From contig VMSU01000028.1 in NCBI GenBank assembly GCA_013792005.1, positions 104 through 64,103 on the forward strand: 64,000 nucleotides of DNA, given 5' to 3'. This DNA comes from Desulfobulbaceae bacterium (GTDB lineage: Bacteria > Desulfobacterota > Desulfobulbia > Desulfobulbales > VMSU01). A program made the translations under genes and the position numbers. The notes under the pieces were generated by a model that was given only the letters and a program-made list of their open reading frames with translations, ran no database searches and was not told the origin of the DNA. Shown here piece after piece: positions 6,865 through 58,766 of this stretch. Position 1 is the first letter of the stretch. Every line of letters begins with the position of its first letter.

Positions 6865-7033
6865 AATGGATTATTGGGGAGTCTTGGTCCTGTTTTCCCG
6901 AGCCTTGCCGAGATCTCAAGAACGATTACTTATCATCGGCTGCAGGCGATTGGAAGGACCGCCCTCCGAAGCGACAATGCAAAACGATGCGAATCAAGAA
7001 CGAGCTGTCGAAATTCTTTTAGGGGAGAAAACC

Positions 7034-8584
7034 ATGCGTTCGATCATTAACTGTATCTTGTATCTGGTAGTCTTATTTTTCCCGTCTCTTGCTTTGGCTA
7101 CAACAACGTTTCCGATAGCCACTACATCAAGGATGGAGGATGCTGTCGGTGTCGCTTTTGACGGGACCAACTTTTTGATAGGCATCGGAGACAAACCGGA
7201 ACCTGATCGTCACAACACTTACCAAAGCATTACCGCACAGCTTGTGTCTAAGGCCGGGGAGCTTGTGGGCTCACGTATATTGACGAGTGCAATCGGAGGT
7301 TCGCCTATAGTTGCGTTTGACGGGCAGAATTATTTGCTTGCATACGAGGAAATCACGACCAATACAGTGGCGGGACAGTTCATAAGCAAATCTGGCGCAT
7401 TGGTCGGTGCGCCGTTCAATATTTTCACGTCACCGAATAGAAGCCTGGGTATGGCGCGCGGCATGCTCTTTGATGGAGCAAATTATTTTGTCGTTTGGGA
7501 AAGCGACAGTGAGCCCGACAACGGAGATACGGCGGATATATTCGGTCAATTCATCACCCCAGGCGGCGCCAAGCTAGGTTCCGTCGTGTCTATCAGCACC
7601 GCCGTGCATGGCCAGCGAAATCCGGGCATTGCCTTTGATGGCAAAAATATTCTTACGGTATGGGCCGATGGTCGCAACCAGAGTGCGTGTTTTACGGACG
7701 GCACGGGCTCACACTGTTTCGAGTCGGACATCTACGGCCAGTTCATCACCAAATCGAGCGCATCAGTAGCAGGGACTCTTTCCGGAAGCAACTTCCTTGT
7801 GGACCCCGGCAGTCTTCCCCGCGACGGTAGTCCTTTGGCGCTTGCTTTCGACGGAACCAATTACCTGGTTACCTTTACCGAAGAAACAACGTTGCCGAAT
7901 GCCTGTGCCGCTGGTGGGTGCAATTGGGAAGCTTACGGCATTCTGGTTTCGAAAGCCGGCGCAACACCGGGCTCCAGTTTCGTTATTGGAGCTACCACAA
8001 CCCGACCCAAGGTACTCCCGGTTCCCACCTACGTCGGAACTCAGTACATCGTGACATGGACCGATGCCATGGGCACTACGTCCCCATATGTCAAAGGCCA
8101 ACTGGTGGCGACAACCGGTGAGGTCTCGGGTTCGGAATTCACGTTGCTCTCGCCACCACAATCGGGCGTCGTACCGTGGTTGGGAATGGTATTCACCGGA
8201 GATGGTGCAAATCTCATGGTCTCGAACTGGGGTGTACCTGACCAAACCGAACCCGACAATATGGATCTTTATTCCGGTAAAAATGTCATGGGTTCATTGC
8301 TGAATATCGCAACCATCAATGCCGGCGGGACGACATACAACATGTCAATCGGGTGGAATCTGCTGGGCAACGGCCTCGCCGATGCATCGATCAATGTCGC
8401 GACTTATTTTGGCGATCCAGGGAAATATATCTCGGTCTGGAAATGGGTGCCGGCCTCCTCAAGATGGGCATTCTATTCACCAAGCATGGACCCCACAGCC
8501 TTTGCTTCTTATGTGTCTAGCAAAGGCTTTGACGTCCTTACCGTGATCAACGGAGGTGAGGGTTTCTGGGTCAACGCAAAATAG
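7034..8584 (+). CDS. Secreted repeat protein (six approx. 60-aa 'FDGxNYLVxW' repeats, probable beta-propeller) with a distinct C-terminal domain
   Basis: Internal ATG at 7034 preceded by 'aggggaga' and followed by signal peptide MRSIINCILYLVVLFFPSLALA. Repeats AFDGTNFLIG, AFDGQNYLLAY, LFDGANYFVVW, AFDGKNILTVW, AFDGTNYLVTF, YVGTQYIVTW. Each repeat is followed by a 'GQFIxKxGxxVG'-type strand. Confidence 0.6.
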   Translation: MRSIINCILYLVVLFFPSLALATTTFPIATTSRMEDAVGVAFDGTNFLIGIGDKPEPDRHNTYQSITAQLVSKAGELVGSRILTSAIGGSPIVAFDGQNYLLAYEEITTNTVAGQFISKSGALVGAPFNIFTSPNRSLGMARGMLFDGANYFVVWESDSEPDNGDTADIFGQFITPGGAKLGSVVSISTAVHGQRNPGIAFDGKNILTVWADGRNQSACFTDGTGSHCFESDIYGQFITKSSASVAGTLSGSNFLVDPGSLPRDGSPLALAFDGTNYLVTFTEETTLPNACAAGGCNWEAYGILVSKAGATPGSSFVIGATTTRPKVLPVPTYVGTQYIVTWTDAMGTTSPYVKGQLVATTGEVSGSEFTLLSPPQSGVVPWLGMVFTGDGANLMVSNWGVPDQTEPDNMDLYSGKNVMGSLLNIATINAGGTTYNMSIGWNLLGNGLADASINVATYFGDPGKYISVWKWVPASSRWAFYSPSMDPTAFASYVSSKGFDVLTVINGGEGFWVNAK

Positions 8585-22818: not shown

Positions 22819-24561
22819 TTAGAGTTCTTTTCCCATTCCCATCTGAATGTAGCCGCATGGGCAGGCCTGAGAACAAATATGACACCCGACACATTGGTTG
22901 TAGTTGGTATACATCACTTCACCCGTTGGATTTTGCGGGAATGCTAAGATTGCCGATTGAGGACAGAATATCAAACATTGTCGGCACTCAAAACAGAGTC
23001 CGCAACTCATGCATCGTATGGATTCAGCCTGAAACTGTTCTTCGGTTATACCTAATTCTGCCTCCGACTCAAGCCCACTTGAACACCGCTGACCAACTGG
23101 TAACCAGTTACATTCGTTGCGTTTGAGTTCGGGATAATATTCCAAGCGCAGTGTATCAGGGGTTGCGATTTGTCTATCCGCGAAAAATCGGAACCCCTTA
23201 CCTTTGAATTTGGCATCAATCCGCTCAGCAGCCATTCTGCCATGGCCAATGGCTGTGGTCACCAGTTCCAGGCTGATGACGTCACCACCAGCGTACACCC
23301 CTGCGCCGACAGACCAGTCTTCATCAGGCATAAGCCAACCATTCTTGACAGGATCAAGCTGAATGCCACTCCAATCTGGACGTTGGCTGATGGCGTAGAT
23401 GACAGCTGTGCATGGCACTTCGAACTCAGACTTTGCCACTGGAATGACCATCCGCCGTCCACTGTTATCCAGTTCATCAAGCTTCATCCTTTGACACTTG
23501 ACGGCAACACCTTTGCCGTTCTCAGATCGAATTCCGAGAGGAGCGACCAGATACCGGATATCAATTTCTTCTATCAACGCAGCATCGATTTCCTTGTCAA
23601 GGGTGGGCATTTCAGCACGTGTTCTCCGGTACAGTAATGTCACTTGAGCTTCTAGTCGTCGTGCAACACGTGCGGCAGTAATGGCGGTATTCCCACCGCC
23701 AATGATCACTACTCTGTCGCCTATATCAATGGTCTTGCCAGAGTTGACCTGATTCAAGAACGCTACCCCGCTCAAGACATTGGGGGCGTTGTCCCAATTG
23801 CCTTCCAGCTCAACCCCCTTATGGGCTCCGATGCCGACAAAAATAGCGTCGTAATTTGCCCTAAGCCTTTCCCACTCAATATCTTTGCCAATGGTGGTGT
23901 TACAGACAATCTCAACACCCATTCTGGTAATGGCGTCAATTTCTGCGTCCAAAATGGCAGGCGGCAGTCGAAAGGCGGGGATTCCATAGCGAAGCATGCC
24001 GCCAGGCTGGGCAAAGGCTTCAAACACCGTTACCGGATAACCGCGTCGGGCCAGCTGAAAGGCGCAACTAAGTCCAGCCGGCCCGGCCCCGATTACCGCT
24101 ATCTTTTTATCCATGACCTCAGGACTTAGTTTTTTATGCTGCAAGCCATGGTTAATGCCGAAGTCGCCAAGCCACCGCTCAAAGGCGGCGATATTGACTG
24201 CGCCATCGTTTTTTTGGGTGCGATTGCATTGGCTTTCACAAGGATATGGACAAACCCGGCCGCAGGAAGCCGGAAATGGCGTGGTTTTACTGGCCTCGTG
24301 CCATGCTAATTCATATGATTCCCGCCAACTGCGATTTTTGAGCTGTGATTGTTGGACAATGGTCAGCCAGGATCGAATGTCATTGCCAGCAGGACAGCTA
24401 GCAGTACAGGGTGGAATTTTCCGCACATAGATTGGGCATTTGTGGCTATGGTCGCCAAAGGCAACAACTTTTTCTGTCCCGTGTTCTTCTGCAAATTCGG
24501 GATAGTGCCAATTGAGGGCGGAATCAAGAATAGGGTTGGAGTCAATAGGTTTGTTTGCCAT
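22819..24561 (-). CDS. GltD/NfnB-like NAD(P)H:acceptor oxidoreductase with C-terminal 2x[4Fe-4S] ferredoxin domain (DsrL-like)
   Basis: N-terminal Cys clusters 'CTASCPAGNDI' and 'SCGRVCPYPCESQC'. FAD and NAD Rossmann motifs 'IAVIGAGPAGLSCA' and 'VVIIGGGNTAITAA'. C-terminal 'CMSCGLCFECRQCLIFCP' and 'CVGCHICSQACPCG'. Starts 14 nt after the dsrB-like stop. Confidence 0.65.
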   Translation of the reverse strand: MANKPIDSNPILDSALNWHYPEFAEEHGTEKVVAFGDHSHKCPIYVRKIPPCTASCPAGNDIRSWLTIVQQSQLKNRSWRESYELAWHEASKTTPFPASCGRVCPYPCESQCNRTQKNDGAVNIAAFERWLGDFGINHGLQHKKLSPEVMDKKIAVIGAGPAGLSCAFQLARRGYPVTVFEAFAQPGGMLRYGIPAFRLPPAILDAEIDAITRMGVEIVCNTTIGKDIEWERLRANYDAIFVGIGAHKGVELEGNWDNAPNVLSGVAFLNQVNSGKTIDIGDRVVIIGGGNTAITAARVARRLEAQVTLLYRRTRAEMPTLDKEIDAALIEEIDIRYLVAPLGIRSENGKGVAVKCQRMKLDELDNSGRRMVIPVAKSEFEVPCTAVIYAISQRPDWSGIQLDPVKNGWLMPDEDWSVGAGVYAGGDVISLELVTTAIGHGRMAAERIDAKFKGKGFRFFADRQIATPDTLRLEYYPELKRNECNWLPVGQRCSSGLESEAELGITEEQFQAESIRCMSCGLCFECRQCLIFCPQSAILAFPQNPTGEVMYTNYNQCVGCHICSQACPCGYIQMGMGKEL

Positions 24562-24575
24562 CGGTGTGTCCGTCC

Positions 24576-25652
24576 TTAAAACCTGACGTGCGCTGATTGG
24601 TTAAAGGTGGTTCTGGCGTGTCGGTACGAATCAATCATGTCTTTTTCAAAGATCAGGCCAGTGGTGGCAAAGAAGTGCTTCCAGCCTACCCGGTCGATCC
24701 ATTCTCCCAATCGCTCCCAAGGCCTCCCTTCCTGTTTATAGACCTCAATGATTTTACTGACCACGGCATTGACCTCTGGCCAGCGAGGTGGATTGTTGGG
24801 AAGATTCTGAGCGACCAGGCAGCCCACGGCCGGCTTCGATCGGGCATTAGAGTTCTTGCCACCAACCCAGACCCCGAATTTTGAATGCTCGGGATGGTTG
24901 ATCTCCATGACCGGGCAGGCACCGAAACAAGCCCCGCAGTACATGCATTTTTTATGGTCAACCCTCAGCGATGGCTTGCCATTGACTACCGTTGGTCGAA
25001 TTGCGGCCACTGGGCAGCGGGCAACCACCTTGGGCAATTCACAGATGTTCGCCATCACCTCATGGTTAATGCGAGGGGGACGGGTATGTTTGACCACAAT
25101 GGCAATATCTGCCTGACCGCCACAGTTGATGGCACAGCAGGAGGTAGAAATTCTCACCTTGCTTGGCAGTTGACAGTTTGTGAACTCTTCATACAGGTTA
25201 TCCATGATGGATTTGACCACACCAGAGGCATCTGTGGCAGGGATGTCGCAGTGAAGCCAGCCTTGGGTATGGGACACATTAGAGACACAGGGGCCGATTC
25301 CTCCCACCGGCAAACCGATCGACTCCAAGGATTTGATTAGCAACTCCACCTTTTCCTCGTCCGCAGTCATCAGTTCCACATTGTTGCGCACAGTAAAACG
25401 TAGGTAGCCATCGGCGTAGGTGTCGGCGATATCACAAATTCGTCGAATCAAATCCACCGAATCCTGGCGGGGTGTGCCAGCCCTTACCGTAAACAGGACA
25501 TCTCCATTTTCGGCAACATGTTTAAGCACACCTGGTCGGAGCAGTTGATGATATTTCCATTTACCGTAATTTTTTATGACTACCGGATGGAGTGCACCCT
25601 GGTAGTCATAAGGTCCTGATTCAACCGTTTTCCAGGTTCGTTCGCTACTCAT
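24576..25652 (-). CDS. dsrB: Dissimilatory-type sulfite reductase beta subunit (divergent DsrB family)
   Basis: 'VIKNYGKWKYHQLLRPGVLKHV' DsrB N-terminus. Ferredoxin insert 'CPVAAIR..CMYCGACFGACP'. 'STSCCAINCGG'. ATG at 25652 with a GGAG RBS, 22 nt after the dsrA stop. Confidence 0.75.
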   Translation of the reverse strand: MSSERTWKTVESGPYDYQGALHPVVIKNYGKWKYHQLLRPGVLKHVAENGDVLFTVRAGTPRQDSVDLIRRICDIADTYADGYLRFTVRNNVELMTADEEKVELLIKSLESIGLPVGGIGPCVSNVSHTQGWLHCDIPATDASGVVKSIMDNLYEEFTNCQLPSKVRISTSCCAINCGGQADIAIVVKHTRPPRINHEVMANICELPKVVARCPVAAIRPTVVNGKPSLRVDHKKCMYCGACFGACPVMEINHPEHSKFGVWVGGKNSNARSKPAVGCLVAQNLPNNPPRWPEVNAVVSKIIEVYKQEGRPWERLGEWIDRVGWKHFFATTGLIFEKDMIDSYRHARTTFNQSAHVRF

Positions 25653-25674
25653 GGTGTGCTCCATTTCGCAAAAA

Positions 25675-26913
25675 TTAGTACGCGGATTTATAATATGGGT
25701 TGCTCCGAGGACTCGATACCATATCGATGGACGCCTCCAGGCCAACTCCATCCAGGAACTGTTTTAAACTGACTCGTTCAATAGTCTCGCCAATTCTCTC
25801 GTGGTCGAAGCCGTTATCATTCCACCACTCAATAATGGTTTCGCATAAGCAGATAAACGTCGCGATATCCTCATCGCTTTCCATTTTGAAGAAGGGAACG
25901 ATCATGGTTCCGCCCATGGCGCCAACCTTCAAGGTATTTTTTCCGCCAAGCAGGATGGCCAGACCTCTTTCCCTGCCTGGTGACAAGGCCTCCGTCATTA
26001 CGTTGATGCAGTGCATGCAGCGGACGCAGTTTGCATTGTCGATGGCCATTGTTCCATCGGCCAGGGAAAGGGCGCGTGTTGGACAACGACTGATCACGTT
26101 GTTTACCAGGAACTCGAGACCATTCTTTTGAATCCAAGCCTGCATGGCTTCCGTATCTACGAGGATGGCATCCCGCCACATCCCGATTACAGCCAGATCG
26201 GAGCGAAAGATTGAATTGCTGCAGTCATTGGGGCAGCCAGAAAATTTAAACTTGAACTTATAGTTATACTGGGGACGGTGGATATCCCCGGCAAAGTGTT
26301 TCATGACCTTGTAGTGCAGTAGCAAGGTGTCATAACAGGCATGTTCGCAGCGGGCAGGTCCCACACAGGAAATGCTTGTTCGCATGGCGGGACCTGCTCC
26401 CCCCAGATCCCAACCCGCTTGATTGATCTCATCAAAGCACTCTTGCACCTTGGCTTCCTCAATGCCCTGCAGCATGATATCACCTGTCTGGCCATGCAGG
26501 GCAATCAAGCCGGAACCATGTTTTTCCCAAGTGTCGCAAAGATCGCGTAACATCGTGGTGTTGTAGTGTAAGCCCGGTGCGGGCTGAACCCGGAGTGTAT
26601 GAAATTCATGGGCCTCCGGGAATTTGTCCGCAATCTTGGAGCGACGGCTGATTACTCCGCTCCCGTAGCCATATACCGTGACCAGACCGCCTTCCCAATA
26701 ACCGGTCTTAGTCAGGTAGGAATACTCCAATTGATCGAGAACTCCCCTGAGCATGGGTTTTTTGGTTCGTTCCGCCAATTCTTTAAGCCCACTGACAAAG
26801 CTGGGCCATGGGCCTTCTTCCAATGCATCCAGCAGGGGAGTTGGATGTAGGAAATTCCCTTCTATAACAGATGATTCGATGGGAAAGTCAGTATCTTTTT
26901 TTTCCTGATCCAT
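25675..26913 (-). CDS. dsrA: Dissimilatory-type sulfite reductase alpha subunit (divergent DsrA family)
   Basis: 'TPLLDALEEGPWPSFVSGLKE', 'VYGYGSGVISR', sirohaem/[4Fe-4S] motifs 'CVGPARCEHAC' and 'KFKFSGCPNDC', ferredoxin insert 'CPTRAL..CVRCMHCINVM'. Confidence 0.8.
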   Translation of the reverse strand: MDQEKKDTDFPIESSVIEGNFLHPTPLLDALEEGPWPSFVSGLKELAERTKKPMLRGVLDQLEYSYLTKTGYWEGGLVTVYGYGSGVISRRSKIADKFPEAHEFHTLRVQPAPGLHYNTTMLRDLCDTWEKHGSGLIALHGQTGDIMLQGIEEAKVQECFDEINQAGWDLGGAGPAMRTSISCVGPARCEHACYDTLLLHYKVMKHFAGDIHRPQYNYKFKFKFSGCPNDCSNSIFRSDLAVIGMWRDAILVDTEAMQAWIQKNGLEFLVNNVISRCPTRALSLADGTMAIDNANCVRCMHCINVMTEALSPGRERGLAILLGGKNTLKVGAMGGTMIVPFFKMESDEDIATFICLCETIIEWWNDNGFDHERIGETIERVSLKQFLDGVGLEASIDMVSSPRSNPYYKSAY

Positions 26914-26937
26914 GGCGTGACTCCTGTGTTGTTTCGA

Positions 26938-28575
26938 TCAAGGATGCGAATTAGCGCCATCCTGCTGAAGTTTTAGCATCATCAGCAATTTATGGGCAGC
27001 GTCTCTGATCTCAATGAGATCGCTTTTGGCCGGCGCGTTTCCATACCAGTGGGCATAATCCGGATTACTGTGACCAACCCCAAGGATCATGAGTTCAAGG
27101 CATTTCTCTAAATCAGACAGGTATTGGAGTAATCGTTTCATGAGCACTTCTGCCACTTGTTGGTTATGCCCAAAGTCTGCCAGTAGACGTAAAGAGCCGC
27201 TCGTATCCTGTTGAACAATCTTAGCGTTAATCAACTCTCCGACTACGCTGTCTGCATCCTTCTTCAAACTTTGGGCATGCTGCTTTATTGTCGACAGATC
27301 TTTAATGAATTGTGAGGTTTGAACCGTTGTGTGGCATGCGCCGCAGAGTTTTTCCCAATCAGCATTTGCCTTGTCGCCGGTCGGATGACAGGTGGCGCAG
27401 GCCGGTTTTTGCCGTTGATCGGGTAATACCCCGTGAAACGAGGATTCGTAGGTCACTTGATAGATAGGGCCGGGAACAGGGATAACTGAGGGAAGGGAGA
27501 TAAGCGAGAGCACGGCATTTTGGGCTGCCAACTCCTCAAGCATCTGGGCTTCGGCCTGTAACTCCTCCAGATGTTTTTGCAAGGGGATCAAGCCTTGGTA
27601 GGCAGCCATTTTAAAATCTTGATGATAGGCGCCTTGGCTCAGATGAATTTGCAAATACTTTTGCATTTCAAAGTAAATTTTCTCTGCTCGGGAGGTATCT
27701 TCATACAATTGGTGAGCGCCAAGAACAAGGGCCTTGCCATCTACCGGGTTAGGTTGCCGATCCTTGGGTGCGGGATAGAGCAGGTTGTTTTTGTTCAATT
27801 GCTCAATGATTATTCGACCGGATGCCAGCAATTGTTTTCCCTTTTGATCCAGCATGACAGCGCCATCCACCCATTTACGAGTGAACGGTTGGTCATGGCA
27901 CTTAACGCATTCCTTGTCAATATACTCACTGCTCAGCCGATCTAGATTCTTATTGGCGTTATGGGTGCCTGGCAGATGGCAACTGGCACAGGTAGAGGGT
28001 GTAAAGTGGTGCCCCGATTTTTGATATGCCTCCATCTGTGGATGATCAGGTCCCATGTGGCAGGTGTAGCAGGACTGTGGTCGTGCGGCCTCAGCCTTGG
28101 AGAAAGTATGTCTTGCATGGCAGAAATCACAGCGTCCGTCATTCTCTCCATAGCCTATTCGGTGGCAGGATTCGCAACCTTGTCTTTTAACCACGTCAGG
28201 CTGTTTTTGATAGCGGGCGTTCGCCTGCATGTTCTCCCATGATTTGCTATGATCGCTGGTCAGGAATTCCTCTGTTTCCTTTTGATGGCATTTCTGGCAG
28301 GCCGAACGGGCGGTCACCACGGACATCTTTTGGTGGTCAGCGCCATGGCAGTCGGTACAACCAACATCATTCTTACCATGAGCGCCTGACATATGTTCCT
28401 GATAAATCCTGGTGGTGGTCTTCTGATGACATTCCTCACAACTCATCTTTGAACTGATAATTTCTTCTATGGCCATCACCGGTTTTTCCTGAGCCAAACA
28501 GGAACCCTGGAGTGATAGAGTCAACCACCCCAACGCGGCTATAACGTGGCAAGCGATTTTTACCGTATAATTCAT
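26938..28575 (-). CDS. Periplasmic decahaem c-type cytochrome, hydroxylamine oxidoreductase (HAO) family-like
   Basis: Signal peptide. Ten CxxCH motifs counted by hand (CEECH, CTDCH, CQKCH, CESCH, CDFCH, CYTCH, CASCH, CVKCH, CATCH, CGACH). HAO-type signature 'CDFCHARHTFSKAEAARPQSCYTCHMGPDHPQMEAYQKSGH'. Confidence 0.7.
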   Translation of the reverse strand: MNYTVKIACHVIAALGWLTLSLQGSCLAQEKPVMAIEEIISSKMSCEECHQKTTTRIYQEHMSGAHGKNDVGCTDCHGADHQKMSVVTARSACQKCHQKETEEFLTSDHSKSWENMQANARYQKQPDVVKRQGCESCHRIGYGENDGRCDFCHARHTFSKAEAARPQSCYTCHMGPDHPQMEAYQKSGHHFTPSTCASCHLPGTHNANKNLDRLSSEYIDKECVKCHDQPFTRKWVDGAVMLDQKGKQLLASGRIIIEQLNKNNLLYPAPKDRQPNPVDGKALVLGAHQLYEDTSRAEKIYFEMQKYLQIHLSQGAYHQDFKMAAYQGLIPLQKHLEELQAEAQMLEELAAQNAVLSLISLPSVIPVPGPIYQVTYESSFHGVLPDQRQKPACATCHPTGDKANADWEKLCGACHTTVQTSQFIKDLSTIKQHAQSLKKDADSVVGELINAKIVQQDTSGSLRLLADFGHNQQVAEVLMKRLLQYLSDLEKCLELMILGVGHSNPDYAHWYGNAPAKSDLIEIRDAAHKLLMMLKLQQDGANSHP

Positions 28576-42585: not shown

Positions 42586-43938
42586 TTATATTATACCTTT
42601 TCCTTCCGCATCGTTGCGCACCGCCAGTCTCGCTTTTTCTTTGAGTTTGCCAGGGTCAAATATTCCAACGCTGACTTTAAGTGATGTCCTTTTGTTTCGT
42701 GCAAGTTTGAACCAATTGGTAATCTCTGCAGATAACGTTTCTTCTCCCACCCGCTTTGCTGCTTTGCCTCCATCGACTTGATGATCAATGACTCCGGAGT
42801 TGACGTAAGTCCACTCTCCATCTTTTTGAGAAATAACTCCAGTGTGGCCTCGAGACGGGGTAGAAAACGAAAGCAACACTCCCTCCTGTAAGAGAGGTTC
42901 GATTCGGGTCATGACATCATCTGCCTGTTGCTCAGCATTGTTGATCACTGAAAAAGATTCATCAAAGAGCTTGTTTCCGGCAACTTCAATCAGACCTTCA
43001 CCATTGTGATAGGCGTTGTGACGAAGTCCTTGGTTTGTGGCAAGTTGAACAAGATGCTGCCGCAGTCCGTTGTTTCCTTTGTATTGGACACCGAGATCTT
43101 CCAGCCCGCGAATGACTAAACCATAGCAATCGATTTTATGATAGGGACGGCCCAGGTATGATTTGACCGATTCAGCAAACCTTTTGGCAAAACCATTGCT
43201 ATTAGAAATAGTTTGAGTTGATTCTATAACAGAGGTGATTGAAGTACCGTTACTCTGGGGCGTGGCACTGATTTTTGGCGCTGTTTTGTCTTGAAATGAT
43301 AACTCCAACGTTTTGGGGTCGATGAAAACCTGAGAGCCTGGTTGTAAGGTTGTGTAAGGTTTGTTGCGGTTTACAGTAGAAAAAATGATATCCCAGGTAT
43401 CGTTACTATAATAGGGATGGTTCTTGAGCAGATGGGAAAGGGTTGGCTGTTCGAAATTAATGTTACCGAGATTTATCAAGCCAGTATCGTTTTGTTGATT
43501 ATTTGAATCTAACACGTTGTTTTCTTGAACAGTTACCGGTTGGGATGGGGTGTTTTCCCAAATGATCTCCTTCGTGGAAGAGTCAAGAAAGACCTCGACA
43601 CCGGGCCTCATGTCGGTAAATTGTTTTTCTTGATTGATATCGGAGAATATAATCTCCCAACATTGAGCGTTGAGGTCTGGGTGGTTGATCAGAAGATGAG
43701 AGACGGAGGGTGAAGAGTCGTTGATTTTCCCCAGAGAGATCGGCATTTTTTGTCCATTGATACCAATAACTCCTGATTTCTCGATTGCATATGTATTGCC
43801 TGATTCACGGCTTGAAACTGTTGAGGTGTTGTTCTGAAAGGAGAGAATAGCGGAAAATTGTTTAGCTGAGCCGGATCGAGGAGCCACGGATCCTCTTGCT
43901 GCTGAGGGCGTCTCAGTATGTAGCGGAGTGATCGGCAT
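42586..43938 (-). CDS. NlpC/P60-like cysteine peptidase with two N-terminal approx. 65-aa repeats; no signal peptide
   Basis: C-terminal 'YHKIDCYGLVIRGL' (Cys nucleophile context) and 'SRGHTGVIS' (His). Repeats '..PSVSHLLINHP..WEIIFSDIN..MRPGVEVFLD' and '..PTLSHLLKNHP..WDIIFSTVN..LQPGSQVFID'. ATG at 43938. Confidence 0.55.
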   Translation of the reverse strand: MPITPLHTETPSAARGSVAPRSGSAKQFSAILSFQNNTSTVSSRESGNTYAIEKSGVIGINGQKMPISLGKINDSSPSVSHLLINHPDLNAQCWEIIFSDINQEKQFTDMRPGVEVFLDSSTKEIIWENTPSQPVTVQENNVLDSNNQQNDTGLINLGNINFEQPTLSHLLKNHPYYSNDTWDIIFSTVNRNKPYTTLQPGSQVFIDPKTLELSFQDKTAPKISATPQSNGTSITSVIESTQTISNSNGFAKRFAESVKSYLGRPYHKIDCYGLVIRGLEDLGVQYKGNNGLRQHLVQLATNQGLRHNAYHNGEGLIEVAGNKLFDESFSVINNAEQQADDVMTRIEPLLQEGVLLSFSTPSRGHTGVISQKDGEWTYVNSGVIDHQVDGGKAAKRVGEETLSAEITNWFKLARNKRTSLKVSVGIFDPGKLKEKARLAVRNDAEGKGII

Positions 43939-44340
43939 AGTGTTTCGGAGGCGAATAGTTGTGAGTTGTAATCTTGTACCCAATAATCAGTCAGTTGAGC
44001 TGTCTGACTACAACTCAACTCGAATTCTCTTTATATTGGAATGATATCTTGTTCTTTTGCAATTGTAGGGCCATGCCTATTAGTTTCTGATTATTCATTC
44101 ATAATGGCTTGTGTTTGTTATTATTAATGTGAGTTACGTGTGTCGTGGCACTCTCCATGAGACATGGTTTTATTGACATAGTGTTTGATGTCTGACATGA
44201 GCTATCCGAGGTTTCATGTGATCCGGGAATCTTGTTGCAATTTAAGGGTTGACTCAGTATCTTACCGAGCGAGAAAATCGATAAATTTGCCGTATTCCGG
44301 CTGGACTTATAGAAAAAATAGAGGGTGAGGGTACACGCGT

Positions 44341-51665: not shown

Positions 51666-53810
51666 TTAAAACATTCGCGACCACTCGGCCCAGGACCCGT
51701 CATGTACTTTGACGTTGTCGTAACCAAGGTAGCGTAAAGCAAGATATAACTCTGAGGCCAGGGATTTGGTGTTGCAGGAGGTGACAATGGTCTTCTCCAT
51801 CCCAGGGGCAATGCCATACTGGGCAAAAAGCCAATTCAGCTCATCAGCATTTTTCAGCTTTCCCTGTGAATCAAGCAAGGATTTTAAGGGCAGGCTCATC
51901 GCTCCAGGGATACTTCCTGGTTTCTTGGTCACATCGGTCCGACTGGAGTGTCCCATATATTCGGATACGTTTCGTGCATCAAGAAGAACCATTCCCCCCT
52001 TGTCCTTATTGTCTTTTACGTGCTGGCTGTTAACCAAGACTTCTCTTGGGTGGGCCGTATAGCCGCTGTCTGCTACCTCAGGGGTCTTCCCTTGTTCCAA
52101 GGTATAGCCAGCGGCAGTCCAGGCGGTGATATTGCCATCCAGAAAGGATACTTGCTTGTGGCCAATACGTTCCAAGGCCACAAAGGTAACGCCGGTCTTG
52201 TTTTTGCCATCATCATAGATCACTACCCTGGTATCGGGAGTAAGGCCTATTTTTTGACTGAAAACCTTGGCGAGTTCTTCGGGTGTTTTCATCATGTACG
52301 GGTGCGGTGTTTTCAAATCGGTTGTCAAATAACACTCACACAGGTTCCGAGCCCCAGGAATATGACCCTCCTCGAATTGCTTTTGGGTACGGACATCCAG
52401 GATCAACACATTCTTATCTTTCACCTTGGCATTTAACCACTGAGCATTGACACGGATTGATTCGTTCCTCTTGGGGCCAGTGATGATTAAGGGCTTAAGG
52501 GCATCGATGGCCTTGGGGATCAGGGTTTCAGGCACCATGACCTTCTGATTGGCTATCCGATCTGTTTCTGGCACGTCCTGTTCGGTTAAAAACAGGTTTT
52601 TTTGCCCATGACAGTGATTGCAATGGGCATTCTGCCACGTCTGTCGTTGAGTGTTGTGAACAGCGCTGCGTTTGAAAGTCTCCCCTTGTTGATAGTTTTT
52701 CAGGTTCTCTTTGAGGTAATGACTGAAACTGTCGGCTTGAATTGGAATTTGCCGCACGAGGACAAATCGTGGCTGGTCTTTATTCTGACTGCTGTTCAAT
52801 CCGATTTTGAACCCATTATACTTGTTGCCGCTTTGTGAATATGCCAATTTGTCTTGATCCACCCCCATATGACAGGAGGTGCAGTTTTCATAGGCTTGGG
52901 AGTGGCAGACAGCGCAATCGACCGTTCCTTTATGCAACTCATTTTTGCAGGTGACACTCTGTGCGAGATTACTATGGCAGTCTGTGCAACGAGTGCGTTC
53001 CGGCAGGGCGTAACGGTTAGTGATCTTGACGGCGGCAGCGTGAACCTCCTTGCTGCCATGGCAATCGACACAGACTTTGCCTTTCAGATAATGAATATCT
53101 CCGCGCGACTGTTTGCCGGTAAAATCATCGACTACAGGTTGGGCGTGGCAGGCGGCGCACTGGTAGGTGAAGTCCGGGCGTTTTTTAAAGATATGCCCTG
53201 CCATCAGACCACCACCGTTAACTCGAGGGCGGCTGACATGACAGGACCCACAACTGGCGGCGTGGCAGACAGAACATTGCTGACCGATGGCTTCTTTGTT
53301 GAGCGTTTGCCATTGCTCTTCGGAACAGCGGGCCCTTAATGCTGCCAGTGAGGCATTTGGTGAGGCGTGTAATGATTGACTCGCTGTTTGAGTGATCTCT
53401 TGATGACAACTACCGCAAACCTCTGTGGACATTGTGAGCGTCGGATCGGTAATCATCCCTTGGTGCGCGGCTTCTGGCGTATCGGCAAGGGGATCACCTT
53501 TGTGGCATTTGAAGCAGGCAATTTTACCGTGAGCCGTTTTTAAAAAATCTTCCTTGACCAGGACATTCTCGAACAGATCAAATGGCGCTCTTTTGACCTT
53601 GTATCCATCACCTTGTTGAAGTTCTGAGGTTTCGACGGTTTGCCGCTCCGTAATCAGCTCTTCTGTTAACTCGTCGATTCGGGAGCTGTCGAGATGACAT
53701 TTGGCGCAGCCGTCCAATTCTTCGGCATGGGCAGATAATTTGGGGAAGAAGGCCGAGGCTAAGCCGACCAGGAGAGCACAACATATCAGCCGTGCTTTTT
53801 GTTTTTCCAT
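51666..53810 (-). CDS. Periplasmic undecahaem c-type cytochrome fused to tandem rhodanese (sulfurtransferase) domains
   Basis: Signal peptide. Eleven CxxCH counted by hand (CAKCH, CFKCH, CGSCH, CSVCH, CGSCH, CAACH, CVDCH, CTDCH, CAVCH, CTSCH, CNHCH). C-terminal 'LILDVRTQKQFEEGHIPGA' (Cys-less domain) and 'VLLDARNVSEYMGH..IVTSCNTKSLAS..DGSWAEW' (Cys-bearing domain). Confidence 0.8.
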   Translation of the reverse strand: MEKQKARLICCALLVGLASAFFPKLSAHAEELDGCAKCHLDSSRIDELTEELITERQTVETSELQQGDGYKVKRAPFDLFENVLVKEDFLKTAHGKIACFKCHKGDPLADTPEAAHQGMITDPTLTMSTEVCGSCHQEITQTASQSLHASPNASLAALRARCSEEQWQTLNKEAIGQQCSVCHAASCGSCHVSRPRVNGGGLMAGHIFKKRPDFTYQCAACHAQPVVDDFTGKQSRGDIHYLKGKVCVDCHGSKEVHAAAVKITNRYALPERTRCTDCHSNLAQSVTCKNELHKGTVDCAVCHSQAYENCTSCHMGVDQDKLAYSQSGNKYNGFKIGLNSSQNKDQPRFVLVRQIPIQADSFSHYLKENLKNYQQGETFKRSAVHNTQRQTWQNAHCNHCHGQKNLFLTEQDVPETDRIANQKVMVPETLIPKAIDALKPLIITGPKRNESIRVNAQWLNAKVKDKNVLILDVRTQKQFEEGHIPGARNLCECYLTTDLKTPHPYMMKTPEELAKVFSQKIGLTPDTRVVIYDDGKNKTGVTFVALERIGHKQVSFLDGNITAWTAAGYTLEQGKTPEVADSGYTAHPREVLVNSQHVKDNKDKGGMVLLDARNVSEYMGHSSRTDVTKKPGSIPGAMSLPLKSLLDSQGKLKNADELNWLFAQYGIAPGMEKTIVTSCNTKSLASELYLALRYLGYDNVKVHDGSWAEWSRMF

Positions 53811-54158: not shown

Positions 54159-54189
54159 AAGCGCCTCTGCCATGATGACAGAGGCGCTT
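54159..54189 (-). terminator. Stem-loop just downstream of the outer-membrane protein gene
   Basis: 'aagcgcctctg' pairs with 'cagaggcgctt' (11 bp), 9-nt loop, 10 nt after the stop. No strong T-tract. Confidence 0.4.
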
Positions 54190-54198
54190 GAGGTTACT

Positions 54199-56406
54199 CT
54201 ACCAGCGATAGTTAAGATTGGCGTAGGCATTCCACATCGTATCAGGAACGGGCATCAAGGTGTCCAGTGCATTCAGGTCATCGATTTTCTTGGGGTTACC
54301 CATGGGGTTGCCGCTTAAATTGTAGTCGTATAGGTAATATTGACTGCCGATAGCGACCGTGAATTTCTTGCCAATAATGGGCTGGTGGTAGTACGTTTCA
54401 AATACATGACCACGGGTGGCAAGCTTGCTGGTGTTAAGGGTGTCTTCACCACCGTTAAAACCGAACCAGTATCTGGAACCGTAGTTCCATTCAAAGCCGA
54501 GAGCGCCTTCAGTCCTGGTGATTGGCACCTTGACTCCTGCCCAGACGGAGTAACCGGTCTTGTTGCTGTAATCGCCGTCGCCGCTCAACAGGCCGTCAGT
54601 ACCCATAAACTGCATCATCGGATTGATTGATATACCACTGGGGCGGGCATAGTTTCCAGCAAGATCGATGAAGAAATCAACGTCATTGACCTTAGTCTGG
54701 AAGAGGAAGGTGGCGAGGTCCATGGAGCCGATATTGGTCATGGCTTCCATCCGGCTGATATAACCACCACCGTTGCCACTGAGAGAATACGTTTCATATA
54801 ATCTGTCGCCATTGGCATCATGTCCGGTAATAGTAAACGGCATCGCCACCAAACCGGTAAAGCCATCAGAGATGTCAAAGGCATGGGCGTACATATGAAC
54901 TAATTGAGTATCACCTTTTTGATACAACCGCATGATGTAGCCAAGGAAGCTGGTGTCATCGACATCATTATCATAACTCATGGCATAGGAGTTGCCGGAC
55001 CCGACTCCGGATTCAAAGCCTGATCCGTAACAAAGCTTGAAGTTGAAACCATCTAAGCCGACCTGCTTACTCAAGTCAAAGCCTAGAGACGCCCCGTCAA
55101 ACTGCCAGTTGATGGCGTGGGCCATGGGCGAGCCACCGACTACGGCATTCTGGCTGACCTCCCATGGCGCTCCATCCAGAGCTGGTCTTCGCCCTAATGA
55201 AAAATGCCAGGGGGCGCTTGCTGTTTCATCCCGGTAAGTGACGAAACCACGTTCCAGGCGAATTGCCGAGTCGGATCCTTTCTGGTTGATATTGCCGTCC
55301 ATGGTGACGGAGGACATGTCACCGTTGTACCATTTGACTCCGGTGCTATCGCCCCAGACCTTGTTTGCGCTTAAACGACCGCCAAAGGAGAGATTCGGAG
55401 TGGGATTTCCTTGCATATCAAAACGAATTCGACTGGTCCAGATGGCATCGTTATCAATATCCTGCTTTTGTGGGTCAATCTGTGCAAACATTCCTTGGTA
55501 TCGCTGCAAGTCGGCGGCGGTGAACTGTGAGCCAAAGAGAGGTGAGCCGTTTCCTGAACTGCTCGGTGCAAGAGCTGCTTGGGCATTAGGTGCTGCCTGG
55601 GCCAGCACGGCAAGAAACTGATCAAAATTCATACCAAATGCCCCCATCATGGTTTGGGCATCTTGGGCTGAAACAAATGTTCCCGCGGGGAAATTCGGAC
55701 CACCCATACCTGTTAAGTCCATACCTGTGGGTAAATACAGTCCGCTTAGGAAACCGCCTGAGAACATCCCGCCCATTTGACTAAACAATGAATTATAATA
55801 TGGGGAGCTTTGTCCTGCGAATGATTGGTTGAAGGTGTAATCAGCAAAGCCGTCGCTGTTCAAATCGACACCATTGCCTACCGGGGTAAAGGTGGTTGGG
55901 ATATTGGTGCCTAGAAATCCGTTGATTCCTGCAATTACTCCCGCATCGGCGATACTTGGTGCGACAAGGTTTTGATTGAATGGCACGGCCAGTTTGTCAA
56001 AGGCCCATAAATTCAACATAGTTTGGTTCCATTCCTGCAACACTCGAGCATCCTTATAATTCATGGTGGTTACTTCCGAGCGCAGATCAACGCCGATGGT
56101 CACCTTATCCATGATGGTATGCCGTTCGTTGGCGCCAACGCGGGAGTCCAGATCATCAAGATCATCTGCAACCTTGGAGATTTTTTCTTCAACCTTGGCC
56201 GTGTCTGTGGTCTCCAACTTCTTTTCGGTGTCGGTCAGGCGGGCGTTGAGTTTTTCGACAATCTCCCGTAACTGCCTAACCTCGTCCACAAGTTCCTGGC
56301 GAGAAGGTTCAGGTGCTGCCAATGCAGACGATACGCCTTGTCCTGTTGTTGAGATCACGGTTGCAAGTGCTGCCGCCAGACCGAGTGCCAAATACCGTTT
56401 CTTCAT
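54199..56406 (-). CDS. Putative outer-membrane beta-barrel protein with N-terminal coiled coil (DUF3373-like)
   Basis: Signal peptide 'ALGLAAALATVISTTGQGVSSALA'. Coiled coil 'LVDEVRQLREIVEKLNARLTDTEKKLE'. Alternating beta-strand pattern. C-terminal 'NAYANLNYRW' aromatic terminus typical of OMPs. Confidence 0.55.
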   Translation of the reverse strand: MKKRYLALGLAAALATVISTTGQGVSSALAAPEPSRQELVDEVRQLREIVEKLNARLTDTEKKLETTDTAKVEEKISKVADDLDDLDSRVGANERHTIMDKVTIGVDLRSEVTTMNYKDARVLQEWNQTMLNLWAFDKLAVPFNQNLVAPSIADAGVIAGINGFLGTNIPTTFTPVGNGVDLNSDGFADYTFNQSFAGQSSPYYNSLFSQMGGMFSGGFLSGLYLPTGMDLTGMGGPNFPAGTFVSAQDAQTMMGAFGMNFDQFLAVLAQAAPNAQAALAPSSSGNGSPLFGSQFTAADLQRYQGMFAQIDPQKQDIDNDAIWTSRIRFDMQGNPTPNLSFGGRLSANKVWGDSTGVKWYNGDMSSVTMDGNINQKGSDSAIRLERGFVTYRDETASAPWHFSLGRRPALDGAPWEVSQNAVVGGSPMAHAINWQFDGASLGFDLSKQVGLDGFNFKLCYGSGFESGVGSGNSYAMSYDNDVDDTSFLGYIMRLYQKGDTQLVHMYAHAFDISDGFTGLVAMPFTITGHDANGDRLYETYSLSGNGGGYISRMEAMTNIGSMDLATFLFQTKVNDVDFFIDLAGNYARPSGISINPMMQFMGTDGLLSGDGDYSNKTGYSVWAGVKVPITRTEGALGFEWNYGSRYWFGFNGGEDTLNTSKLATRGHVFETYYHQPIIGKKFTVAIGSQYYLYDYNLSGNPMGNPKKIDDLNALDTLMPVPDTMWNAYANLNYRW

Positions 56407-56520: not shown

Positions 56521-56856
56521 TTAATCGCAGGTTTGTGGTTTGTCTGAGTCCAACGCATGTTCTACGGCATATCGGTGAACATCTTCGAGAAACTCGGTGG
56601 TATAGCCCCAAGAGTCCCATTCAGGCATTTTTTTCTTAAGTTTTTCAAAGTCGTTATCAAAGTAGCGGCCCCATTGTTTTTTGGTTTTGCTGGAAGGGCT
56701 CATGCTGGTAGCTTTGCTGCCATCGTGGCATTTCCGGCAGACAGCAAACGATTCCTTTCCCTTGACGGCATCTCCGCCATCAGGATTAAAGGATAAAGCC
56801 AGGCTGGTTGGAAGCAGTAGCAATACTGTCATGACCGCAGTTCTGTACATCTTCAT
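56521..56856 (-). CDS. Small periplasmic monohaem cytochrome c
   Basis: Signal peptide 'MKMYRTAVMTVLLLLPTSLALS'. Single 'CRKCH'. Confidence 0.7.
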   Translation of the reverse strand: MKMYRTAVMTVLLLLPTSLALSFNPDGGDAVKGKESFAVCRKCHDGSKATSMSPSSKTKKQWGRYFDNDFEKLKKKMPEWDSWGYTTEFLEDVHRYAVEHALDSDKPQTCD

Positions 56857-56909: not shown

Positions 56910-58766
56910 CTATAATTTCAATAATAGGTGGTCAAGCTCTTCCGCTTCTGCAGACAGGGTTTCTGCCTGGTGTTGAAGAGCCACAGCGTGATCCTTGGTG
57001 TCTCTTGCTGCCATAGAAACGTCTTGAATGTGAGACGACATCTCTTCAGCAAGAGAGGATACTCCACTGATGCGGTTGCTGATCTCAGAAACCACTGCCG
57101 ACTCCTCTTCGACGGAAGCGGCAATGGATGACGAATTTTCGCTGATTTTGTGAATGATCGAGCTGATATTCTTCATAACTTCAGAAGTATGTTTGGATTC
57201 TTCCTGAATAGTAGTGATCTTGTTATTGATCTCCTCTGCCGCGTTATTTGCCGATTGCGCCAGGGTTTTAACCTCATTGGCGACAATTGCAAAACCGGCC
57301 CCGGCTTCACCCGCCCGTGCAGCCTCCACATTGGCGTTCAATGCCAACAGTTTCGTTTGAAAGGCGATGCTGGATATCAACTTGCTGACTCCGCTGATGC
57401 TGTCGGCGTGATTTTTAAGGGTATCTACTACAGCAGCAGCACGTATCGATTCGTCGGTGGCCTCCTTGGCGATGCCGGCAGAGTTGACCGAGTTACTGGA
57501 AATTTCGAAAATTGCTGCATTGATCTCCTCGCTTGAGGCGGCGAGGGATGAGATATTCTCGGTTGTTTCGACAATATTATGGTTGGTACTCTCAACGAGC
57601 TGTTCGGTTCTATCCACATTGGTCAGCAGTTGCTGGGACATGGCTAAGAACAGTTGGGCACTCTCATGAAGGCGGTGCACCATCTGATTTAAGGTTTTGT
57701 TGAAGCCATGCATCATGGATCCGATGTAAATGGTGATTAAGACAGAAAGCCCCAGGCCAAGACCGGCAAAGACAAACACCCGTTTCTTGCTGGCTGTTGA
57801 TACGGATTTCATTTCGGACAAAGAGGACTGGAGGAGGGTGCTGTTGAGATATTTTTGAAGAGCGTTAGCTGCAACCTCTGCCCTATCGTAAATCTCGTTT
57901 AATTTGACTATTTGATCATTGAAGAGGTCCTGTTGAAGCCGGTATTTTTCTTCAACAAGTTTACCCAGGCCACCGAAAAAAAGTCCCAGGGTCTTTAAGT
58001 CCTTTTCTGCACTAATGAAGATTTGATTGGCTCCGTCAAGATCACCGGCGGCAATTTTTTCATCGATCTGGTGGGCATATTTGTGCAGTTTGTCGTGCAG
58101 GGGGTGAATTTCTTCAAAGACCTCTGTGATATCCTCATCCTCAAACTTAGTTTGCGAGTACCACTGATAGAATCCGCACCCCTCAGTGTCCAGACCACCT
58201 GATAATCGTTTGTTCTTGTCGATGGAATCCTTGATCGCCCGGATGAAACGGACATGGCCAAGTTCCCGTTCGTTAATGATGTCAGGAAGTGGCCGATTTC
58301 TTTCCTGATAATCAGCAGTATAGGAAAGCATTTTTTTGCGGATGGGGATAAATGAATCGATAGAGTCATAGAACTCGGTGCTGATAGCGATGAAGTCCTT
58401 GGCTAATTTAAGTTCCTGTGCCCCGGAGGCTACTTGTTCAAGTTGTTTGCCAATATCAAGGAACCGTTGCCGGAGGGTAGTCGCGTTAGCTCCTAATTCG
58501 TCAATGCCTGAGGTGGAAAGCTCAATGTCTTTAGGGATCTGACCGGCCTTGGCCAAATTAATTTTACATTCGTCCGCCAATTTGACTGCCGTATTGATTT
58601 CCAGCATCTTATTAACAGATTGAGTATTGCTTTCCAGTGTTGTGTGGGACAACCGTCCGAGAACGATAAACAGACAGCAAATTATGAGAAAAGAGAAAAA
58701 CAGTTTGTTCCGCAGGTTGAAACGGACATGTTTCAGGATACGGAAAAAGGATGGGGAAGAAAGCAT
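56910..58766 (-). CDS. Methyl-accepting chemotaxis protein with about 300-aa periplasmic sensor domain carrying a CZB-like His/Cys motif
   Basis: Signalling hairpin '[30 protein letters not shown]'. Two TM segments. Sensor 'HVRF..x22..CGFYQW..x21..HDKLH'. Confidence 0.9.

Follow-up and report, generated by a model that had tools for sequence, protein, structure and literature searches.

The closest described counterpart of the gene analysed here is the ext cluster of Geobacter sulfurreducens, which encodes the rhodanese lipoprotein ExtH, the porin ExtI and ExtKL, i.e., MccSep, a pentahaem selenoprotein polysulfide reductase (PMC13510729, PMC5877670). MccSep also reduces selenite, and with this enzyme the cleavage of S-S bonds by haem plus selenium was demonstrated only just, in 2026 (PMC13510729). 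Here, we analyse a 64,000-nt stretch of a Desulfobulbaceae genome (contig VMSU01000028.1 of assembly GCA_013792005.1; hereafter, the window), in which one minus-strand gene encodes an eleven-haem cytochrome c fused to a tandem rhodanese. The ext cluster shares with this locus and its relatives the combination of a periplasmic-side rhodanese, an outer-membrane porin and a selenocysteine (Sec)-bearing multihaem cytochrome, a combination tied to the reduction of elemental sulfur/polysulfide and selenite. However, in Geobacter these are separate proteins, whereas here cytochrome and rhodanese form a single chain. Moreover, the porin is a DUF3373 protein rather than ExtI-like, and the window member has Tyr instead of Sec. 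MccSep has 5 haems and the Sec context DGUPT, the fusion family 11 haems and the context GxGUGG, and homology between them is undetectable: MccSep (PDB 9wt8) did not match the family profile significantly (E 0.12), and the fusion falls outside the MccSep/ExtKL family, whose marks are five conserved haem motifs, a conserved Sec/Cys site and similarity to GSU2937-2936. Rhodanese-assisted multihaem chalcogen redox chemistry with a porin is a known concept, and its single-chain version is uncharacterised; we found no characterised cytochrome-rhodanese fusion in the searchable literature, just as an earlier note on this DNA, made by a model from the sequence alone, named none.

Other described systems resemble parts of the protein. 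Its rhodanese half shares with SseA/3-MST, RhdA and bovine TST the two-domain fold, the inactive N domain, the six-residue Cys loop and the DGSWxEW motif. However, the latter proteins are standalone cytoplasmic or mitochondrial enzymes of about 280 aa, whereas the protein described here is predicted to be secreted and is fused to a cytochrome, and its family differs from them in the loop CNT[K/N/G] and an extra CxC in domain 1. Two further likenesses are conceptual. In Wolinella succinogenes, Sud, a rhodanese-type carrier of the periplasm, passes polysulfide sulfur on to the respiratory reductase Psr, but Sud is a single-domain dimer and Psr a molybdoenzyme. TsdA, SoxAX and DsrJ, with His/Cys-ligated haems, are c-type cytochromes in which a haem Cys does sulfur chemistry, and they may serve as a model for the Sec/Cys/Tyr site at residue 70 described below.

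Layout and conservation of the cytochrome-rhodanese fusion

The gene and its parts, in window coordinates, are:
51666..53810, minus strand: cytochrome c/tandem rhodanese fusion gene, 714 aa, stop codon included (list of open reading frames (ORFs) and translation, 11 CxxCH motifs, Pfam, full-length homologues)
53724..53810, minus strand: predicted signal peptide, aa 1-29, with an AHA/EE cleavage motif and without lipobox (read from the translation; equivalent N-termini in homologues)
52491..53723, minus strand: multihaem cytochrome domain, aa 30-440, 11 CxxCH (motif count, Pfam, AlphaFold2 (AF2) domain model with a mean predicted local distance difference test (pLDDT) of 83)
53601..53603, minus strand: Tyr70 codon TAC within GDGY (TGA at the aligned position of 62 related loci; a few have Cys)
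53325..53327, minus strand: Cys162, adjoining the invariant Arg161 (alignment of related loci)
52101..52463, minus strand: rhodanese domain 1, about aa 450-570, predicted inactive with Asp534 at the Cys position (Pfam, alignment, domain comparison)
52332..52340, minus strand: Cys491-Glu-Cys493 motif in rhodanese 1 (alignment of related loci)
51669..52043, minus strand: rhodanese domain 2, about aa 590-714, predicted catalytic domain (Pfam, alignment, Foldseek)
51756..51776, minus strand: active-site loop Cys679-NTKSL-Ala685 (Cys679 aligned with the SseA catalytic Cys)

The coordinates of the earlier note hold, and the strand, which it missed, is minus; a plus-strand reading of 51666..53810 gave a translation full of stops and was rejected. 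As the note had read it, the translation is a 714-aa protein with exactly eleven CxxCH motifs, which start at aa 35, 99, 132, 179, 187, 218, 247, 275, 299, 310 and 397 and span aa 35-401; about 0.003 would be expected by chance in a protein of such size, by our own estimate. By inspection, the N-terminus (MEKQKARLICCALLVGLASAFFPKLSAHA before EE, i.e., …LSAHA/EE) looks like a signal peptide of the Sec pathway and, together with the eleven motifs, points to a secreted multihaem c-type cytochrome. Further Pfam matches in this part are to MtrC/MtrF domain II/IV and cytochrome c7.

Pfam PF00581 matches two rhodanese stretches in the protein (7.6e-36), and over their whole length the C-terminal 260 residues can be aligned with Escherichia coli SseA, a Thermus rhodanese and Azotobacter vinelandii RhdA. 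The AF2 model of the whole protein (pLDDT 82, predicted template modelling score (pTM) 0.81) superposes on 3-MST and RhdA with template modelling (TM) scores of 0.82-0.86, and Foldseek with this model returned rhodanese matches only. When the two domains are compared side by side, Asp534 (VVIYDDG) fills the place of the catalytic Cys in domain 1, and in domain 2 the six-residue loop CNTKSL begins with Cys679, after which comes HDGSWAEW, the TST/MST signature. Two folds with a Cys loop in the C-terminal one only place the protein among the tandem-domain rhodaneses of the TST/MST type, with a predicted sulfur-transfer activity, and bear out the note's description of an inactive first and a Cys-bearing second domain. 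Other cysteines outside the haem motifs, which the note does not mention, are Cys491-x-Cys493 in rhodanese 1 and Cys162 and Cys288 in the cytochrome part.

Three observations identify the fusion as genuine and strongly conserved. First, a word-indexed search recovered about 69 full-length fusion proteins, one of them encoded in the complete Desulfocapsa sulfexigens DSM 10523 genome, together with a 100% identical partial entry from a Desulfobulbaceae metagenome-assembled genome (MAG). Second, a scan of one genome per species gave 164 stretches encoding relatives, and the best 80 are all fusions. Thus, the search for the same domain architecture that the note had proposed finds it in at least 80 species-level genomes. 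The hosts include Desulfocapsa, Desulfofustis, Desulforhopalus, Desulfosarcina, Desulfobacter, Syntrophaceae, Syntrophorhabdus, Geobacteraceae, Anaeromyxobacteraceae and Nitrospirota. Third, at 35-80% identity, 80 of the 81 aligned loci with coverage of the rhodanese Cys retain it together with the 11 haem motifs; the database homologue P0060 has Gly in place of Cys679. Because the uninterrupted architecture recurs in independent isolates and MAGs from many studies, the complete D. sulfexigens genome included, the frameshift or assembly join of two genes that the note had named as a way to fail is ruled out as vanishingly improbable; we found nothing in its favour. The conservation of the haem motifs and of Cys679 likewise argues against its other caveat, i.e., a rhodanese that serves purely as a structural spacer.

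The wider family comprises 472 standalone-cytochrome representatives at E ≤ 1e-3. The D. sulfexigens homologue, probably UWK_00046 (the locus tag follows from its position), is listed merely as a "rhodanese-related sulfurtransferase" among nine rhodanese genes of this species. In the 455-aa metagenomic fragment P0119, the C-terminal half of a rhodanese with the loop CYTGQTA stands, by eye, ahead of a family cytochrome domain, and the truncated rhodanese was not called by Pfam. If real, this reversed domain order suggests that the modules were joined more than once.

An in-frame UGA codon between haems 1 and 2 in related genes

The codon aligned with Tyr70 was recorded at 82 distinct loci, with the D. 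sulfexigens locus, which was retrieved twice, counted once. It is TGA in 62 loci, TAC or TAT (Tyr) in 18, the TAC of the window included, and TGT (Cys) in one; the remaining locus (L021) was not caught by the codon pattern and reads Cys. TAA and TAG do not occur at any of the loci, and five more members in the protein databases have Cys at this position. The Sec-type loci lie in L003, L022 and L024-L085 (example L003:6989-7036). In many homologues, the annotated protein begins with MAPLEPQ… and has about 640 rather than about 710 aa. At the Desulfobacter locus L003, the signal peptide and haem 1 are encoded by a small upstream ORF, and the TGA that ends it shares the frame of the main ORF.

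A hairpin, typically GUGGCUCC-GUU-GGAGCCAC, lies 12 nt past each TGA. It is 93.5% paired, four of its eight pairs are changed on both sides, and neither any of 500 shuffles nor any slid register matched these values for pairing and covariation. Its mean minimum free energy is −13.3 kcal/mol in Sec-type genes versus −0.7 in Tyr-type genes. An in-frame TGA with a covarying hairpin is the signature of a bacterial selenocysteine insertion sequence (SECIS), here with the motif GxG-U-GG, and indicates that the 62 related loci encode an unannotated selenoprotein family in which Sec insertion is predicted. By contrast with these loci, the window gene has TAC and no hairpin and, thus, neither the in-frame UGA nor the SECIS stem-loop of a selenoprotein gene. 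Because gene calls start past the TGA, the signal peptide and haem 1 are lost from the annotations, and MccSep genes are similarly split by gene callers at the UGA. In a search seeded with a Geobacteraceae member, which gave 642 clusters at E ≤ 1e-20, the domain architecture was seen for the best 120, and every one of these entries is truncated at the TGA and labelled only "rhodanese-like" or "SseA". Among the standalone cytochromes, many likewise begin at a truncated start or carry CGG at the corresponding site. Truncation at UGA and sulfurtransferase labels together make the cytochrome nature and the predicted selenium dependence of the family invisible to metabolic reconstructions.

The 2026 review of the prokaryotic selenoproteome has as cytochrome entries only ExtKL, the GSU2204 family and the octahaem tetrathionate reductase (OTR), with Sec-containing members of the OTR family, and no such fusion. 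Its entry "rhodanese-like form 1, UxxS" of G. sulfurreducens (WP_010941598.1) could conceivably represent the same family, as U-G-G-S would fit that motif; no G. sulfurreducens protein is among the best 120 matches of the Geobacteraceae member. The selenoprotein COG2897 of the Sargasso Sea survey, which is described there only as a rhodanese-related sulfurtransferase with no hint of a cytochrome, was taken as a different protein.

Sec-type and other loci also differ elsewhere in the gene and in its surroundings. A gene for a DUF3373 protein lies immediately upstream in 20 of 20 distinct non-Sec loci, the window included, but in none of the 62 Sec loci, for which roughly 6 kb of flank was available. 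Cys491-x-Cys493 is present in every Tyr/Cys-type relative and in no Sec-type relative. Residue 162 is Cys in Tyr-type relatives and in one of two Cys-type loci (Ser in L006) and Ala, Ser or Thr in the Sec type, and the catalytic loop is CNTG or CDTG in the Sec type but CNTN in the Tyr/Cys type and CNTK in the window. The neighbours of Sec-type genes are lineage specific, with a NapC/NirT-like membrane multihaem protein at 13 loci and a cytochrome c3 directly downstream at 12; NapC/NirT-like proteins and cytochrome c3 are typical respiratory electron donors. By these sequence features, the window gene is a member of a derived Tyr/Cys clade. Because Cys-type members already carry the porin and the CxC, the simplest path of replacement would be from Sec through Cys to Tyr, and UGA to UGY to UAY would, we infer, be the only route by single-base steps.

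Proposed function of the fusion protein

Eight His residues outside the haem motifs are universally conserved (His94, 116, 148, 206, 240, 257, 293 and 385) for 11 haems, so that some haems, up to three, would have non-His or open coordination. This suggests that at least one haem is unusual and possibly catalytic rather than part of a pure wire. Other universal residues include Arg161, Ser193-Arg194-Pro195, Asp238, Tyr307, Lys380 and Thr391-Trp392-Gln393. The profile of the cytochrome family matches, among solved structures, Shewanella OTR (1sp3, E 2e-8) and OcwA (6qvm, E 1.6e-7), and also GSU1996 and NrfB. A PDB search with the single sequence gave no cytochrome match, and OTR and OcwA were reached by the family profile only. 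OTR, the best match, is a multihaem enzyme whose substrates are sulfur anions with S-S bonds, and differs from the fusion in haem number, in having no rhodanese and in the lack of a Foldseek fold match. Foldseek with the cytochrome-only AF2 model (pLDDT 83) returned nothing from the PDB at E ≤ 1e-3, a null result without weight, as cytochrome models that lack their haems are poor in secondary structure. No NCBIfam model scored above its cut-off for the window protein, a Sec-type member or standalone relatives. TIGR04315, the model of the eight-haem OTR family, has a cut-off of 375 bits; it reached 15.7-30 bits on relatives, namely standalone cytochromes and a Sec-type fusion, and is absent from the NCBIfam matches of the window protein at E ≤ 0.001.

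The earlier note saw in the fusion a haem wire covalently linked to a persulfide carrier, which would couple sulfane-sulfur chemistry to periplasmic electron transfer. This interpretation is partly supported. However, given the Sec/Cys/Tyr site between haems 1 and 2 and only eight universal distal His residues for 11 haems, a cytochrome half that is a plain wire is unlikely. Rather, Sec beside haems in the relatives points to chalcogen redox catalysis, as in MccSep (PMC13510729). We, therefore, suggest, with a probability of roughly 0.5, that the fusion acts in the periplasm as a sulfane-sulfur (polysulfide or thiosulfate):cytochrome oxidoreductase and is partnered by a porin of the outer membrane; localisation, substrate, sulfur relay and direction are what we infer from sequence and context. 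A soluble sulfur species, i.e., polysulfide from S0 or thiosulfate, would cross the outer membrane through the DUF3373 barrel, and Cys679 of rhodanese domain 2 would take one sulfane sulfur as a persulfide. Nearby thiols, i.e., Cys491/Cys493, Cys162 or both, would then resolve the persulfide, a step that in the ancestral form would fall to the selenocysteine between haems 1 and 2. The eleven haems would then donate two electrons to finish the reaction, with release of sulfide, plus sulfite if thiosulfate is the substrate, and the 111-aa monohaem cytochrome c encoded next to the porin would connect the haem chain to a periplasmic or inner-membrane electron pool. This proposal is supported by OTR as the closest solved relative of the cytochrome half by profile, and D. 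sulfexigens, which is among the relatives, grows by disproportionation of S0 or thiosulfate. It is also in line with the conserved trio of genes described below, with the respiratory electron donors encoded beside Sec-type genes, with dsrAB and a GltD/DsrL-like gene in the window and, as a hint from expression, with the abundance of a DUF3373 protein in Dissulfuribacter (PMC13490349).

Several points weigh against this proposal. With Tyr at its putative catalytic site, neither Sec nor Cys, the window protein may no longer perform the haem-side chemistry of its ancestor, or may perform it in altered form. Between the DUF3373 stop codon and the fusion gene lie 388 nt that contain a strong hairpin, and co-transcription of the two is, therefore, not assured; scans for promoter and terminator consensus sequences did no better than on shuffled sequence. 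The porin role of the DUF3373 protein is itself putative, and the similarity to OTR is weak and partly driven by the haem motifs. With respect to Tyr70, two readings are possible. Catalysis may have passed from residue 70 to the cysteines specific to the clade. Alternatively, residue 70 may bind a haem as an anionic ligand, which Sec, Cys and Tyr are all able to do, and the swap would retune that haem.

We favour the reductive direction, although the same device could run in reverse. In that case, the rhodanese would gather sulfane sulfur that stems from sulfide or polysulfide, and electrons would leave along the haems to periplasmic acceptors. The host has dsrAB followed by a GltD/DsrL-like gene, an arrangement linked to sulfur-oxidising or disproportionating Desulfobulbales, and the replacement of Sec/Cys by Tyr in exactly the clade of the window recalls, by analogy only, the Tyr that biases the catalytic haem of octahaem hydroxylamine oxidoreductase-type enzymes toward oxidation. 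However, a rhodanese persulfide is no known intermediate of any haem-dependent oxidation, and MccSep and tetrathionate reductase, which come closest in function, both act as reductases. While nothing in the sequence fixes the direction, we consider an oxidative function unlikely.

The likeness to the ext cluster also raises the idea of a module for the reduction or detoxification of selenite, tellurite or other chalcogen oxyanions, like Geobacter ExtH/ExtI, which have been implicated in the reduction of selenite and tellurite. In its set of porin, rhodanese and cytochromes the locus is like the ext cluster (PMC5877670), selenite is also a substrate of MccSep, and the window protein has weak NCBIfam matches to ExtH (NF040901) and ExtM (NF040943). 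These scores, however, are far under the cut-offs (51.5 versus 200 bits and 27.2 versus 800 bits), the porin belongs to another family and the fusion family is concentrated in sulfur-cycling Desulfobacterota, all of which makes an oxyanion module distinctly unlikely.

It is still more improbable that the locus encodes a plain extracellular electron conduit, i.e., a porin-cytochrome complex in which the rhodanese is merely a structural or docking module. The Pfam match to MtrC/MtrF domain II/IV and the adjacent beta-barrel gene would suit a conduit, and eleven haems could span a long distance. Against this stand the almost universal conservation of the catalytic Cys and the TST/MST signature, the 62 Sec-type relatives without a barrel partner in the available flank and the absence of a lipobox for surface anchoring. 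In addition, the MtrB-type barrel, which sheathes a cytochrome, has 26 strands, whereas the adjoining barrel is classed with the smaller 18-strand DUF3373 porins. Set beside conduits of the MtrAB/Pcc type, in which a large MtrB/PioB- or Pcc-type barrel sheathes a periplasmic multihaem cytochrome and a lipoprotein cytochrome sits on the outer surface, the locus gives a mixed picture: it has an adjacent barrel gene, of the DUF3373 and not the MtrB_PioB family, and its operon has no lipoprotein cytochrome.

A sulfane-sulfur oxidoreductase could have wider implications. Joining the findings on Sec with this proposed function, it is a tentative possibility, on the doubtful side, that the family is an unrecognised catalytic multihaem module and a second and very widespread class of sulfur-metabolising multihaem seleno-enzymes, in which the replacement of Sec by Cys and then Tyr was a retooling for the first step of disproportionation. 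If so, the key residue between haems 1 and 2 would be selenocysteine in most lineages, with members mis-annotated as truncated "SseA", and its replacement in the Desulfocapsa/Desulfobulbaceae clade would have come together with the gain of Cys162, the CxC of rhodanese 1 and the porin partner. This retooling would serve the uptake and activation of external sulfur in the disproportionation of elemental sulfur or thiosulfate, and the family would be an independent second solution for haem-based S-S reduction, with the sulfur carrier built into the enzyme. The operon of porin, small cytochrome and fusion in Desulfocapsa and relatives is a testable candidate for sulfur entry in disproportionators.

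Neighbouring genes and window context

The fusion gene is the last of a head-to-tail minus-strand trio of small cytochrome c, DUF3373 protein and fusion. The other two genes of the trio and a possible associate are:
56521..56856, minus strand: monohaem cytochrome c, 111 aa, secreted, CRKCH, first gene of the trio (ORF; weak Pfam Cytochrome_CBB3 match)
54199..56406, minus strand: DUF3373 protein, 735 aa, second gene of the trio (Pfam PF11853, 3e-111)
56910..58766, minus strand: methyl-accepting chemotaxis protein (MCP) with zinc-binding CZB domain (Pfam; 53 nt upstream of the trio, same strand)

DUF3373 proteins form TCDB family 1.B.62 of putative 18-strand outer-membrane porins (PMC4827864), and one is among the abundant proteins of the thiosulfate-disproportionating Dissulfuribacter (PMC13490349); the genes around it are not discussed in that paper. 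The DUF3373 protein of the window has a signal peptide, a 316-aa coiled-coil and Gly/Ala-rich extension and then a predicted outer-membrane beta-barrel. Within aa 1-316, the coiled-coil is followed by a low-complexity region rich in Gly, Ala, Ser and Phe; close relatives of the window and Cys-type loci share the extension (proteins of about 716-735 aa), which the 578-aa Desulfocapsa protein lacks.

L087 has the trio as well, with 66% identity for the fusion and 70% for the small cytochrome, which lies at the same position. The Desulfocapsa loci keep the pair of porin and fusion, with a 228-aa dihaem, two-domain homologue of the small cytochrome just downstream and a Tll0287-like/HAMP sensor upstream (L001:4834-5745). 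In both the window and L088 (4897-6849), the unit is flanked by an MCP gene, which is possibly part of it; the recurrence of sensor genes hints at chemotaxis or regulation linked to the same substrate. The hairpin in the spacer upstream of the fusion gene, at 54159-54189 (minus) and just past the DUF3373 stop codon, has an 11-bp, GC-rich stem (AAGCGCCTCTG…CAGAGGCGCTT) and, by eye, no clear T-run. Possible roles of the hairpin are those of an attenuator, a terminator or a site of RNA processing, and the fusion gene may have its own promoter. The small cytochrome c and its homologues end in a conserved …DSDKPQTC-D/E and, thus, have a free C-terminal Cys besides the single CxxCH.

An Rfam scan of the window found only a tRNA-Ser, away from the locus, and, thus, no selC in the window. 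Two large ORFs, at 6806-8584 (plus strand, 592 aa) and 42586-43983 (minus strand, 465 aa), matched nothing in Pfam or NCBIfam. The window also contains dsrA, dsrB, the gene for a GltD/DsrL-like flavoprotein and a further multihaem cytochrome gene, which mark the host as a sulfur-metabolising member of the Desulfobulbaceae. These genes lie at 22819-28575 (minus) and encode a 545-aa multihaem cytochrome, DsrA, DsrB and a 580-aa GltD-like NAD(P)-binding Fe-S flavoprotein, possibly of the DsrL type; a multihaem cytochrome gene directly upstream of dsrAB is an unusual arrangement.

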